A DNA stretch of 64,000 bases from Promethearchaeota archaeon (GCA_019057865.1 JAHLWP010000016.1:1-64000); one strand, 5' to 3'. Counted from the stretch's first letter, positions 24,857-30,714 are shown. Translations and numbers: made by a program. Notes: generated from the letters alone by a model not told the origin.

Positions 24857-25333
24857 CTATCTAAGTGGCTTTTCTTTCTTACCAGTTAAAAGTGCTTGTA
24901 GGCTCACACCATTTACTTTTACAACTCTCCACCTTACTCCAGGGAGATCACCGATAGCTCTCCCTTTAGCTCCACCAATACCTTCTAATAGAACACGATC
25001 ATGCTCATCAATAAAATTAAGCGCTCCATCTCTAGACATTATTAGAACTTAATAATGTACTCCAGGTAGAAACGCTGTAATAGTCTTTCCATTTTTCTTT
25101 AATTGTACGCGTACACACTTCCGAATAGCTGAATTGGGTTGTTTACTCTCCCGACCAACTTTCTGTAGCACGATACCTAGGGCTTGTGGAGCTCCTTCTA
25201 AGGGATCAACCTTCTGTTTTAATTTGAGCTTTTTCCTTTTATATTTTGATTTAGACCAGCGAAATCTTCTTCGATTTTTTCTTAATTGTCGTGCGGCGTA
25301 TAATCCTTTTGGTTTTCCTATTTTGAACACCAA
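24857..25333 (-). CDS. rps12: 30S ribosomal protein S12 (uS12), interrupted by a 30-nt insert; exons 25333-25060 and 25029-24857
   Basis: [15 protein letters not shown]...TAFLPG and [11 protein letters not shown]...GDLPGVRW halves join in frame when 30 nt are removed. Confidence 0.95.
25030..25059 (-). other. Candidate bulge-helix-bulge mRNA intron in rps12
   Basis: CUGG-AG|U-ACAUUAUUA-AGUUC-UAAUAAUGU-CUAG-AG|A; contains an in-frame UAA. Confidence 0.8.
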
Positions 25334-25437
25334 ATAACAATATTTTAATTATATTATAATGTGAGAAAATATCTCATAGAACTTAAAATTTATGAATATT
25401 ATAAATATCTTAAATAGAAAAGAATGAGTTCTTCTGA

Positions 25438-25917
25438 TTAAAAATTATTTTTTGTATTAATTATTACATTATCTACTTCAAAGTACCTTAAAACTAGTTC
25501 TTTTATTTTTCTAATCATACTACCTTCTTTACCTATTGCTTTTCCACGATCTTGGGGGCGAACAGAGATAATAATAGTTTTCTTTAGATTCTTACTCTCT
25601 TTAATTTCGATATTTTGGACTTTTATGGCATTCTTGGTAGTATTTAAGATATTTTGTATAAACTGGTTAAGATCTTCAGAAAATTCGATGACATCTATAT
25701 TCTTTTGAAGTCTTGCCTTTAAATCTTTTACATGTTCTCCAGCTTTTCCAATTGCTTTACCTACATCTTCTTTTTTTACTAAAAAGATAACTACTTCAGA
25801 ATTATTTTCAGGAGATCTGAAAATTAGACAGTCTTTTATTATAGCGCCAGATATATTATTGAATAAGGAAATAAGTTCCATCGATTTTTGATCAATTCTA
25901 ATATGTTTTCTTAACAT
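25438..25917 (-). CDS. nusA: Archaeal NusA (two KH domains)
   Basis: GKAIGKAG and GKAIGKEG KH motifs; conserved position between rpl30e and rps12. Confidence 0.93.
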   Translation of the reverse strand: MLRKHIRIDQKSMELISLFNNISGAIIKDCLIFRSPENNSEVVIFLVKKEDVGKAIGKAGEHVKDLKARLQKNIDVIEFSEDLNQFIQNILNTTKNAIKVQNIEIKESKNLKKTIIISVRPQDRGKAIGKEGSMIRKIKELVLRYFEVDNVIINTKNNF

Positions 25918-25933
25918 TTTTGAACCAATTAAG

Positions 25934-26314: not shown

Positions 26315-26509
26315 TATCTTCTCAAAAAGTATCTTTTAGTTGACTAATAGTAATTATAATTTATACTTGAATTTAATTTTTTGTTAGTTTATGTTATTTC
26401 TTCATTTATATTAACAATATTTTTTCTATAATAATATTTTTTAAAGAATAAGTGAAAATTTAATTAAATTAACCTAAATTATTAGTAAATGCTATAAATA
26501 TGCTTATTC

Positions 26510-27709
26510 TTACTTTTTGAGTCTCTTCTTTAATATCTCCAAATTTCGGTCAAGATCGAACATGATATTTGTTCTCCCCGTGCCAATCGGAATAACCTGA
26601 CCTATAATGACATTCTCGGGAATTCCTCTAAGGAGTTCCTGTTCTCCGTAAAGCCCTGCATCCAGTAATTGATTGACTGTGACTTCAAAAGCGGCTCTTG
26701 CAAAGACACTCGATTTTGAGCCTGAAATTCCATGTCTTCCTATGGATTGAATTGATCCAGTATGACACATTAAATCTGCTAAAATTAGTAAGTGCCTTAG
26801 ATCAACATCTAATCCTTGTTGTTCAAGGACTTTTTGTGCTTCAGTAATAATCATCTTACGTGCAGCTTCTATACCGTATAGTTTTTCTATTTCATGGATA
26901 TGATTTGAAACTGTTCTTGTTGTATCCACTCCATCAATTTGAATTACCCCTTGCATGTTTGTACCTTCAGTTTTTATTACCCATTCTTCATTATTGTCTG
27001 AAGGTGTTAATAATCCTCTTTTTACTCCTCTAATACCTTTTACAACTTTTTTTAGGATTTTTTCTCTTAATTTCTGTAAACTCTGAAGATCTTCAATTCC
27101 AGGATCAATAATGATCGTGTTTCCTTCTCGCTTAATTGTACCTTTTTTCTTATATCTTTTTAAAATTTCAGGGATTTGGTCAATATCTATTCCTTTCTTC
27201 TCACAAATTTCAGTGATGAGATTAATATGAATTTGCCAATTTACAAAATCAAGATCTACATCATGTGTAATCTGTTCAATTCTAATTTGTTCTATACGAT
27301 TATGAACCTTAATTGCTTCCTCTTCTGTTTTATTATAAGGTTCTTCTAAGTAGATAGTCATTTGTGGAGTTGAGGGAAAACGCCTAGCATCTACAATTTC
27401 AATCAAGCGTGGAAGACCCTGAGTAACTGAGAACTCTTCAACACCTGCATAATGGAAAGTTCGAAGAGTCATTTGGGTTCCAGGTTCACCGATTGATTGA
27501 GCTGCAACTGTCCCGCATGGTTCATTTGCTTCCATTAATGAGTTATTATAATTAATAAATACTTTATTCAAAAGGTATTCCAATTGTTCTTCTTCTAAAT
27601 CTACATCTTTTACTTTTTCTCGAATTTTTTCGATTAAATCGTCTGGAATACCATCATCTAATAAAACATTTAATTGTTCTTCTAAAATTTTAGGTGTTAC
27701 TTTAGCCAT
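26510..27709 (-). CDS. rpoA2: RNA polymerase subunit A'' (Rpo1C)
   Basis: [37 protein letters not shown]. Confidence 0.98.
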
Positions 27710-27715
27710 ATTTAT

Positions 27716-30714
27716 CTACCCCATTTTTTCTTTTTTCCATTCTATATATCCTTTAGTTTCTTTCCCACGCCATATAGATTTTTTACCTGTTTCCTCCTCA
27801 TATTGTTTCTGGAGAGCTTCCTCATCATGAATTTTTGCTTCTACTTTTTTAGGTTTTTCCTTAACAGCCACTTTTTTTGGTTTCTTTTCAGTAACTTCTT
27901 CAATTTTAATTTCTTTTTTCTTCGCAGGAGGAGCTTTTTTAATTTCAGTACGAATCTTTTCGACATCAAGAGCTTTTGCTTTAAGGAGCAAAACGTCTAA
28001 ATTAACCGCATCCCCATGATCTGTATGCATTACATCAACACCATCATCGCCAAAGGCGAACTGGATTATATTTTTATCAGAATTCCTTACAGTTCCATCA
28101 TTTTCAATTACCATATCCTGTAAAGCATTAACAAGCCTTCTCTGCATATATCCAGATGTGCTTGTACGTACTGCTGTATCAACAAGGCCCTCTCTTCCAC
28201 CCATTGCGTGAAAGAAAAACTCTACTGGTTTTAATCCATTACGATATGATGATGAGACAAATCCTCTAGATTTAGGACTAAGATCATTAACCTTAAAATG
28301 TGGAAGTGTTCTAAGGGCATATCCACGATTAATTCTTTCTCCTCTGATTGCTTGTTGTCCAACAACAGCAGACATCTGACCTAGATTTAAAATATTACCT
28401 CGAGCACCGGATTTTGTCATGATAACTGAATGCGCCTTATCCCCAATATAATCTGCTGCAAGTTCTTCGGCTTCTTTACGGGCTTCAGCTAATACTTGTC
28501 GTATTCGTAATTCTAAAGTTTCTTTCATAGAACGTCCAGGAGCTCTTTTCAATATTTTAGTATCATTTTCATAAAAAGCTCCTATAAGTCTTTCAGATTC
28601 GTCATTAGCGTCTTTTAATATCTTTTGGATGGCTTCAAAAGCTTTACCTTTAACATAAACTTCATCTAATCCCATTGTCATTCCATTTTGGCGAATAACA
28701 TGTAATAACATTTTTGTTGCGCTATCTAAAAATTGCCTTCCTCGCGCATTGCCATGATCCTTAATAATACGTTGTAAAATGCTATTTGACTGCATAGCAC
28801 CAAATGAATTCTCATCAATTGTGCCAGTTATTAAATAACCATTTTTAATTTCGACATATGCATCATAGGGACAATCTTCTTCTTCACATACATTACATTT
28901 CTTACAGAATTTCGATCTTACCCTTATATTTAAGTCATCAGGAAATAAAGTACTAAAAATCTGCTTACCGGAATACATAATTTCAGGATCAGTAACTGCT
29001 GGTTCTAATTGATCCAAACTAAAATCAGGATTATTTTCAAAAATATCTCCAAGATACAATAATTTCAATGTGCTTTTTTTATTGTATAATGCGTCTTTAC
29101 TCGTAAATTGGAAAACACTTGATATAAAATCTTGAATCCCTCCTAATATTGGCCCACCAAATCGGGGTGATAATATATGTTCTTGAACCTTAAGTAATAG
29201 TTCTGCCTCTGTTCGAGCTTCTTCACTTTGAGGTACATGTAAATTCATTTCATCACCATCAAAATCTGCATTATAGGGAGGGCATACAGTTAAATTTAAC
29301 CGAAATGTTTTACCATCCATAATTTTAACTTCATGAGCCATTATCGACATCCTATGGAGTGAAGGTTGTCGATTAAATAAAACCAAGTCTCCATTACTTA
29401 AATGGCGTTCAACCGTAAACCCGGGTGTTAACATATCAGCAATGATCTTTCGATTTTTTACATACCGAAGATCAATTCTTCTACGATCATTTCGTATTAT
29501 GTAATTAGCTCCTGGATGTCTATAAGGACCACTTAAAACCAGCTGTTTCATTTCTTCAATATTCCAATCATTAACATTAGTTGGAATGGTTAAGATTTTA
29601 GCAATTTCTATTGGTACTCCAACTTCATTAATACTAATGTACGGGTTTGGAGATATTACACTTCTTGCTGAAAAATCAACTCTTTTACCACTTAAATTAC
29701 TTCGAAATCTTCCTTCTTTACCTTTTAATCTTTGAGTAAGCGTTCTAAGTGCTCGACCAGAACGATGTCTGGCTGGAGGGATGCCCGAAACTTGATTATC
29801 AAGATAAGTAGTAATATGATATTGTAATAATTCCCATAAATCCTCAACAATTAGATGAGGTGCTCCTGCATCAATATTTTCTCTTAATCGTTGATTAATT
29901 CGAATAACATCTACTAATTTATGGGTTAAATCATCCTCAGACCGAATACCACTATCTAGTGTAATTGATGGTCGTGCGCATACAGGAGGTATAGGTAATA
30001 CAGTAAATATCACCCATTCAAGTCGTGCATTTTCAGGAGAAATACCGAACGTCCTGAGATCGATATCAGTCATCTTCTTTAATCGTTCTAGAATCTCAAT
30101 AGGTGTTATTCGCCGAGAGCCCTTCCCTTCTTCCTCCTGGTAAAACGTTGTAGGTTTTTCAATTATAATTTTTTTCTTTTTAGCTCCACAATAAGGACAT
30201 ACTTTACTTTTTCTAGCGCGTTTGAATACAAGCTTAGCAGCATCTTCATCTCCTTCAAAAAATAATTTTCGATGCTTGATTTGCTCTTGTCTGAATTTCT
30301 CTTTTTCTTCTTCAGTGAGCATTAATCTTGAGCATTCGGGACAAATTGAACGTAAAACTTTTAAAACTTTCTTTGCATAACCTACATGAATAACTGGACG
30401 GGCAAGCTTTATACTAAGGCCTCGAAATGAGGCAAAAATCTCTCTATTTAGACTTTAGGGGTGAGAGGCCCCAAAAAATGCCCGAAATGCCCCATACAAT
30501 TACTCACGAGATTTCCACAAGTCTGACAACGTTGTCCTGGTTCAATTGTCCCAAGTCTTTGATCCATTAATCCACTCGGAATCGGAAGACCATCCTCATC
30601 ATATGTGTCAGCAGTGATAATTCGTGCTGCTGACATTTTTCGAATCTCATCAGGACTAAGTAAGCCAAACTTGATTTTTTCTATCAGCTTCGTTCTTGAA
30701 AATGTATAACTCAA
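27716..30714 (-). CDS. rpoA1: RNA polymerase subunit A' (Rpo1N), interrupted by a 65-nt insert; 977 aa if removed
   Basis: [10 protein letters not shown] catalytic motif; N-terminal CQTCG...CMGHFGH joins [30 protein letters not shown] after removing 30413-30477. Confidence 0.95.
30413..30477 (-). other. Candidate intron/intervening sequence in rpoA1 (boundary ambiguous by at least 1 nt)
   Basis: 65 nt, frame-shifting, contains stops; closed by the 10-bp stem UUGGGGCCUC/GAGGCCUUAG. Confidence 0.7.

Follow-up and report, generated by a model that had tools for sequence, protein, structure and literature searches.

Putative bulge-helix-bulge micro-introns in RNA polymerase, ribosomal protein and other coding genes of a Promethearchaeota archaeon

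Two interrupted genes in a transcription and translation operon

How could an archaeon make its RNA polymerase and its ribosomes from genes that carry stop codons within invariant motifs? The question is raised by a minus-strand operon of a Promethearchaeota archaeon, found in a 64,000-nucleotide (nt) stretch of DNA (GCA_019057865.1, JAHLWP010000016.1:1-64000), here called the window, where open reading frames (ORFs) and Pfam domains identify rpoA1, rpoA2, rpl30e, a nusA-like KH gene, rps12 and rps7. Two of them, rpoA1 (subunit A' of the RNA polymerase) and rps12 (ribosomal protein S12), are broken by short inserts. These inserts are very probably introns of the archaeal splicing endonuclease type, recognized by a motif termed bulge-helix-bulge (BHB), in protein-coding genes, which the endonuclease EndA would excise and the ligase RtcB would join; we infer cleavage and ligation of the mRNA from the sequences.

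The rpoA1 frame is open from a TTG at 30714 to ...CMGHFGH (CAT at 30480-30478) and then meets a TAA; the conserved residues pick up 65 nt downstream, in a different frame with no usable start codon. In rps12, the reading ...TITAFLPG is followed by 30 nt with a TAA and then by the conserved remainder of the protein. Both interruptions sit within invariant protein motifs. A first-pass annotation of this DNA had reported two stop-containing inserts in conserved motifs of these genes and neighbors showing no decay, and both observations were confirmed, since the Pfam profile coordinates run on across the two breaks (Rpb1_1, positions 2 to 74 on the first rpoA1 ORF and 110 to 312 on the second; S12, positions 2 to 54 and 54 to 108), no interruption is seen in the ORFs or Pfam domains of rpoA2, L30e, S7 and the NusA-like KH gene, and a genome search found rpoA1 and rps12 to be single copy. 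The genome that holds the window (G000, with the window on its contig C27) is a metagenome-assembled genome (MAG) of 4.26 Mb in 87 contigs, 99.7% complete and with 5% estimated contamination. The G+C content of the window is ca. 27 to 31%. The parts of the two genes, all on the minus strand, are as follows.

30478..30714, minus: rpoA1 (subunit A') exon 1, 79 codons, TTG start, ends ...CMGHFGH (ORF, Pfam Rpb1_1 2-74)
30448..30477, minus: putative rpoA1 intron A, 30 nt (script search; same site and motif as the sole intron elsewhere)
30444..30447, minus: putative rpoA1 micro-exon AUAG, 4 nt, an Ile codon plus the first base of a Glu codon (two-intron solutions)
30409..30443, minus: putative rpoA1 intron B, 35 nt, with 1 nt of uncertainty in the register (BHB search; sole intron elsewhere)
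27716..30408, minus: rpoA1 exon 3, AG CUU GCC... to the stop codon (Pfam Rpb1 domains 1-5)
25060..25333, minus: rps12 exon 1, ends ...AFLPG(D) (ORF, Pfam, alignment)
25030..25059, minus: putative rps12 intron, 30 nt, UACAUUAUUAAGUUCUAAUAAUGUCUAGAG (BHB register and fold)
24857..25029, minus: rps12 exon 2, (D)GALNFIDEH... to the stop codon (ORF, alignment)

Precise in silico removal of the inserts restores GHIELARP and AFLPGDGALNF, matching intronless orthologues. The virtually spliced rpoA1 (exons 1, 2 and 3) measures 2,934 nt and encodes 977 amino acids (aa), a length equal to that of the intronless gene of a close strain (L248, see below), and the virtually spliced rps12 encodes 148 aa. The N terminus in rpoA1 exon 1 is 96 to 100% identical to intact orthologues.

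In the proposed mechanism, the last six nucleotides of the exon and the last six of the intron would pair into a helix of 4 bp with a 3-nt bulge on each side. A heteromeric EndA, composed of an alpha subunit with a broad-specificity loop and a beta-like paralog, would cut after the second nucleotide of each bulge (marked below by a caret), and RtcB would ligate the exons. One 30-nt intron would be removed from rps12, and from rpoA1 the 30-nt A and then the 35-nt B, successively, around AUAG; the expected products are an A' reading GHFGH-IELARP and an S12 reading AFLPG-DGALNF. The predicted spliced junctions, GGGCAU/AUAG/AGCUUGCC for rpoA1 and CCUGGAG/AUGGAGCG for rps12, make the splicing claim directly testable in existing metatranscriptomes.

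The putative rps12 intron

The protein alignment allows four equivalent registers for the rps12 junction. The register 25059-25030 gives a complete central helix (CUGG/CUAG, 4/4) with AG^U and AG^A as its 3-nt bulges, and the intron itself forms a perfect hairpin of 9 bp. The exons pair in a helix of 8 bp beyond a small internal loop, the helix abutting the bulge (h) being 0, and the enforced BHB fold has -24.9 kcal/mol versus -25.3 for the minimum free energy (MFE) structure, a gap of 0.4.

This intron is fixed in the species and was seen in no other species examined. An identical intron was found in five other assemblies of the same species (L244 to L246, L249 and L250; 98 to 100% identity), which comprise one NCBI MAG, three JGI metagenomes and one Logan assembly, so the insert is not an artifact; with zero variants among the copies, no covariation signal is available for it. 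The 39 relatives with a match (24 same-genus species among them, the closest being G012 at 95% identity) lack the insert and read AFLPGDGALNF uninterrupted, and so do 79 further operon loci with an S12 match.

Two probable introns and a micro-exon in rpoA1

The 65-nt insert of rpoA1 is best read as two BHB introns, A and then B. The inserts found at this site fall into three size classes among species: a class of 30 to 31 nt (G017, which equals L040/L089, together with L099 and L139) with intron A alone, a class of 85 nt (G022, which equals L100, and L083) with intron B alone, and the 65-nt class of the genome studied here, of L247 (a 99.4% identical strain) and of L112.

Members of the A class show a canonical BHB, with exon GG(G/A)C and bulge AU^U, a hairpin, and a 3' end of G(C/U)CU and bulge AA^A. 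Their central helix covaries (GGGC/GCCU in G017 versus GGAC/GUCU in L139), which means that a synonymous position of a Gly codon covaries with the intron. In G000, intron A has the central helix GGGC/GUCU, the bulges AU^U and AA^A and the hairpin UUUU-U-GGGG / CCCC-U-AAA, an intron helix (h') of 3+4 bp with a U.U mismatch, while h abutting the bulge is 0. For the 85-nt class, naive alignment gives IKLARP; moving the junction by +4 nt restores IELARP and, in that register, the motif is a perfect BHB (AUAU/(A/G)UAU, bulges AG^A and AA^A, intron helix UGGU/ACCA). Intron B of G000 has the central helix AUAU/GUAU, the same two bulges and a 5-bp exon-exon helix. Its central helix is 3/4 in the precursor and becomes 4/4, with the exon-exon helix added, once intron A is removed. 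The MFE structure of the rpoA1 RNA devoid of A is the intron B motif shifted by one register.

When all two-intron solutions were enumerated by script, only three yielded GHIELARP. The best of them places A at 30477-30448 (30 nt), AUAG at 30447-30444 and B at 30443-30409 (35 nt), with both helices 4/4. All 27 intronless orthologues examined read IELARP, with the Glu invariant, and the two-intron reading is preferred because only two-intron solutions restore this residue. The AUAAAG that looks like Ile-Lys belongs to intron B as its 3' end, which resembles exon because it must pair with the exon. The folds also vary in a manner that preserves pairing: hairpin 1 shows a compensatory change (GGGG/CCCC in G000 versus GAGC/GCUC in L112), hairpin 3 covaries (GCCUC/GAGGC in G000, GGGCG/CGCCC in L112, CUUC/GAAG in G022 and CCUC/GAGG in L083), and the single G-C to G.U change of the L247 insert keeps its pair. 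The two introns would be removed in order, A first, since the central helix of B is complete only after A has gone, when its exon-exon helix would form as well, and since removal in order is the sole way for the 4-nt exon to stay joined to a larger piece at each step.

Two earlier expectations had to be revised. One intron per gene had been assumed, and the 65 nt are better described as 30- and 35-nt introns around a 4-nt micro-exon. The statement that the 3' junctions follow AG stands for rps12 (AG^A) but not for rpoA1, where both introns end in AA^A.

As an alternative, rpoA1 might contain a single 65-nt intron removed via a relaxed motif, with the junction after UUAG and the product GHFGH-IKLARP. 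These are the boundaries set by the naive protein alignment; in the MFE structure, a 10-bp stem together with an exon-exon helix encloses the insert as a whole, and this register has a 3/4 central helix and an intron helix of 4 bp. However, a single intron loses the invariant Glu, and its closing stem is not conserved in L112, where the two local hairpins are kept with compensatory changes. The two-intron model, in turn, reaches 4/4 at two sites that are each used singly in other species. We therefore consider a single intron improbable. A single canonical BHB was sought as well, in all registers by hand and by script, and failed; the best one reached 3/4, with Lys in place of the invariant Glu.

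Several observations weigh against reading the inserts as BHB introns, and against the tandem pair in particular. The BHB conformer of intron A in G000 lies 4.3 kcal/mol above the MFE structure, which uses the competing 10-bp stem, and the helix of intron B in G000 has only 3 bp plus a 1-nt bulge when drawn by hand and was scored h'=0 by the script (4 bp in L112). The exon helix abutting the bulge is mostly missing or offset (h = 0 to 2), and the motifs are mostly of the relaxed HBh' type rather than strict hBHBh'. We know of no precedent for a 4-nt micro-exon in BHB splicing. Finally, a pattern scan of metagenomes for the rps12 exon ends separated by a gap of 0 to 30 nt did not find the spliced junction and returned only two more unspliced copies.

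A genome-wide set of putative micro-introns

To look beyond the operon, the ORFs of at least 90 aa from 2.8 Mb of a complete genome of the same genus (G006) were compared by tblastn with G000, and query-contiguous matches were kept if additional DNA with a stop or a frameshift separated them in G000. This search is blind to the BHB motif. Over ca. 2,040 orthologous ORFs it gave 15 inserts in 12 genes, including those of rpoA1 (65 nt) and rps12. The 13 further inserts measure 28, 29, 29, 30, 30, 30, 30, 31, 31, 31, 32, 32 and 34 nt and are found in the following genes.

C82:~40874-40903: EF-2
C82:548-579 and C82:97-126: acetyl-CoA synthetase (two inserts)
C56:2607-2638: Roadblock/LC7
C7:63986-64016 and C7:63861-63890: thiolase (two inserts)
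C75:2684-2714: NAD-epimerase
C3:127257-127287: amidohydrolase
C63:36100-36128: aIF2-gamma
C4:~9931: unannotated gene
C49:~5283 and C49:~5700: unannotated gene (two inserts)
C37:37968-37998: unannotated gene

When only the protein-defined registers are considered, a 4/4 central helix is combined with an intron helix in eight of the 10 single inserts found first, and a ninth fits the BHB if a near-optimal register is permitted. Random sites of 29 to 32 nt qualify in 0.41% of cases per register and in 1.2% per three registers, against which 8 of 10 corresponds to a P of ca. 2e-14; the motif is thus clearly enriched among inserts chosen without reference to it. The central helix is likewise complete (4/4) in three of the four inserts resolved later, and AA^A is the commonest 3' bulge among these other micro-introns. 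In the reverse direction, five inserts were found in G006, in other genes, and four of them (28 to 30 nt; C1 near 337502, 1129394, 1410034 and 1621962) fit the BHB register in genes that are uninterrupted in G000. No clean insert could be resolved at two more census candidates (C23:~141084 and C72:~9739). The first-pass annotation had gone as far as suggesting a genome-wide splicing layer. The spread over 12 genes, together with the inserts that G006 has of its own, supports this idea, but the micro-introns touch only ca. 0.6% of the genes and are not pervasive.

A genome-wide screen for canonical BHB motifs by which two open frames would be joined was discarded, as frame-shifted controls gave a background of ca. 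3,600 per register from ordinary gene boundaries; its in-frame excess was modest (ca. 60 for introns of up to 45 nt), too weak to use, and it was superseded by the tblastn census. Two possible origins were also considered. Each micro-intron sequence is unique within G000 by blastn-short, on which ground a repeated mobile element was rejected, and target-site duplication at palindromic tetranucleotides fits rps12 (CUGGAG/CUAGAG) but fails for most other introns. Some hairpin loops recur in unrelated micro-introns (AGUUC, at 25042-25046 of the window, UUUCC, AAUUC and AUUUC), which could be a shared recognition feature or a mere effect of composition.

Polymorphism between strains and spread of the rpoA1 introns

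The inserts are not limited to one assembly: besides the rps12 intron of the five assemblies described above, introns occur at the rpoA1 site in at least seven species. Within the species of the window, presence of the rpoA1 introns is polymorphic. L248, a JGI contig with 98.3% identity to the window, has the rps12 intron and an intronless rpoA1, the site reading GGT CAT TTT GGG CAC ATC GAA CTT. Between the virtually spliced rpoA1 of G000 and that of L248 there are 50 mismatches over 2,934 nt, and 11 of these are found within 52 nt around the intron site (window 30460-30514 and 30394-30408, codons ca. 67 to 84), nearly all of them three nucleotides apart. The cluster suggests either a recombination (co-conversion) tract that travelled with the introns or exon codons adapted to the BHB. 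No donor of the tract emerged when the exon flanks of G000 were compared with those in L112, G022 and L248.

In a tree of 83 distinct rpoA1 sequences, the intron-bearing lineages are scattered, each with intronless nearest neighbors, a pattern that points to numerous gains or losses, or to lateral transfer. A class-wide screen of 121 genomes showed the rpoA1 frame ending just past exon 1 in 11 of the 99 matched genomes of the family (f1), from five genera, and in none of the 17 matched genomes outside it; 8 of these 11 truncated genomes were scored by the frame end alone.

Some other irregularities of rpoA1 appeared along the way. A second break within exon 1 is a candidate in G132 (C4:219886-220152) and G066 (C17:339-606), where the two pieces meet at about residues 43 to 45, and the rpoA1 match of G113 (C314:189-455) is 30 nt too long and contains a TGA. 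One sequence of the tree, L104 (DATKTW010000033.1), is titled 'Candidatus Nanopelagicaceae bacterium', carries an Asgard rpoA operon and nests in the Promethearchaeota; the record is likely mislabelled or a contaminated MAG.

Splicing enzymes and tRNA genes

G000 encodes two members of the EndA family (PF01974), at C71:81560-82159 and C69:38262-38882, and one RtcB (PF01139). One EndA is alpha-like: in its best alignment, which is with the alpha (catalytic) subunit of the (alpha-beta)2 enzyme from Aeropyrum pernix, the catalytic Tyr, His and Lys are retained and no gap falls in the Crenarchaea-specific loop, where K44 and R46 are conserved. This loop confers broad substrate specificity (PMC3241643), and broad-specificity EndAs cut relaxed motifs of the HBh' type (PMC5829648, PMC3241643). 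The other EndA aligns best to that of M. jannaschii and has Ser aligned with the catalytic His, which suggests a structural, beta-like subunit. Examination of the EndA subunits, a check proposed in the first-pass annotation, thus gave a loop-bearing alpha of broad specificity and a beta-like partner, along with RtcB. The set agrees with the (alpha-beta)2 EndA with an L1 loop published for Asgard archaea (PMC5829648).

ARAGORN recognized 18 tRNA genes in G000, 12 of them with introns, despite the 99.7% completeness; most of its tRNA genes probably carry too many interruptions for recognition. The low number fits the heavy interruption reported for Asgard tRNA genes (PMC11291895; bioRxiv 10.64898/2026.10.13.758758).

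Split genes, bypassing and artifacts

Three further explanations dispense with splicing. The genes might be truly split, or pseudogenes, with the pieces translated apart or not at all. In every assembly, gene calling yields two ORFs, and the second ORF of rps12 starts, by chance, with an ATG 10 nt past the stop. Yet the conserved rpoA1 segment after the break has no in-frame start codon, both genes are the sole copies, and their exons are under strong purifying selection; moreover, the BHB enrichment and the covariation would be left unexplained. On these grounds, split genes are very unlikely.

We give even less credence to ribosomes bypassing the inserts or shifting frame over them. In phage T4 gene 60 and in the 'byp' elements of Magnusiomyces mitochondria, the inserts stay part of the mRNA and depend on take-off and landing codons that match. 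Those described here resemble these elements in being short, hairpin-forming and stop-containing and in lying within essential coding sequences, but no matching codons exist at any of the three inserts (in rpoA1 the candidates are CAU versus AGU/AAG, and in rps12 GGA has no landing match that preserves DGALNF). The 4-nt window in which both rpoA1 frames are open has no slippery site, and bypassing predicts neither the BHB register, which the inserts fit, nor the covariation between exon and intron.

Assembly or sequencing errors could be suspected in a MAG with 5% estimated contamination, but this explanation is effectively refuted by the independent NCBI, JGI and Logan assemblies with the identical rps12 insert, by the structure-preserving changes of the L247 rpoA1 insert and by the homologous inserts of other species. 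Self-splicing introns were rejected as well: group I and II introns have a ribozyme core of hundreds of nucleotides that covariance models recognize, and the 30- to 35-nt inserts are far below that size. An Rfam search of 24000-31200 at an E value of 1 or less found no family except one chance-level match to a CRISPR repeat elsewhere.

Relation to known systems

Three known systems bear on the BHB reading. In HAC1/XBP1 splicing, the endonuclease IRE1 cuts the mRNA at stem-loops and a tRNA ligase or RtcB seals it, and the frame depends on the splice. The resemblance lies in an mRNA intron handled by a protein endonuclease and sealed by a tRNA ligase (here predicted from sequence), whereas HAC1/XBP1 has another endonuclease and motif and a single regulated substrate.

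A close case in archaea is the cbf5 pre-mRNA of Crenarchaeota, whose BHB intron is reportedly the subject of work by Watanabe in 2002 and Yoshinari in 2006. It is a BHB intron in an archaeal protein-coding gene (Yokobori 2009, PMC2738675) and shares with the inserts described here the short length, hosts with hetero-oligomeric EndA and gain and loss along lineages. However, cbf5 is one gene family of thermophilic Crenarchaeota, while here at least 12 genes are concerned in one mesophilic Asgard genome, including those of RNA polymerase A', S12, EF-2 and aIF2-gamma. The narrow size range (28 to 35 nt), the tandem pair around a 4-nt micro-exon and the presence or absence within a species also set them apart.

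The introns of tRNA genes share the 4-bp helix with two 3-nt bulges, the cut behind the second nucleotide of the bulge, the enzymes predicted to act, the relaxed HBh' forms, the repeated lineage-specific gains and, sometimes, the ordered removal. They differ in substrate. In the coding region of an mRNA, the motif's exon half is made up of codons, a synonymous site covaries with the intron, and failure to splice would truncate an essential protein.

The mechanism proposed is itself already known. In the literature searched, the only archaeal mRNA BHB intron documented was that of cbf5 in Crenarchaeota, and no report of BHB introns in protein-coding genes of Asgard archaea was found. What is new is the lineage of the host, how many genes are affected and of what kind (RNA polymerase and ribosome included), the uniform micro-size, the tandem pair with its 4-nt micro-exon and the strain polymorphism.

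Taking the evidence as a whole, we lean toward a broader picture, with less confidence than in the nature of the inserts: a Loki-type Asgard family would have a dynamic, genome-wide set of ca. 30-nt BHB micro-introns in its mRNAs (RNA polymerase A', S12, EF-2, aIF2-gamma), gained, lost or laterally exchanged at the scale of strains, with one site in rpoA1 as a recurrent hotspot, tandem introns leading to ordered splicing, and an expression of RNA polymerase and ribosomes that depends obligatorily on EndA and RtcB. If the inserts are spliced, essential information-processing genes of Asgard archaea need RNA splicing, and obligatory mRNA splicing by protein enzymes would be present in the closest prokaryotic relatives of eukaryotes. 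Intron gain and loss would be observable at strain resolution, and the exon half of the BHB motif would constrain synonymous sites. In that case, gene callers also systematically split or truncate marker genes (rpoA1, rps12, EF-2 and aIF2-gamma) in these MAGs, which affects completeness estimates and marker alignments.

Other features of the operon

The remaining genes of the operon are uninterrupted.

26510..27709, minus: rpoA2 (subunit A''), intact (79-96% identity to relatives, full length)
25934..26314, minus: ribosomal protein L30e (L7Ae family), intact (ORF, Pfam)
25438..25917, minus: NusA-like KH-domain protein, intact (ORF, Pfam)
24227..24844, minus: rps7, intact (ORF)

The operon varies in gene content between strains. 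In L247 (GCA_019057575.1, DXJN01000048.1, positions 7461-10000), ca. 2.2 kb of extra DNA, absent from the window, lie between the nusA-like gene and rps12 and hold three unannotated genes (271, 140 and 172 aa).

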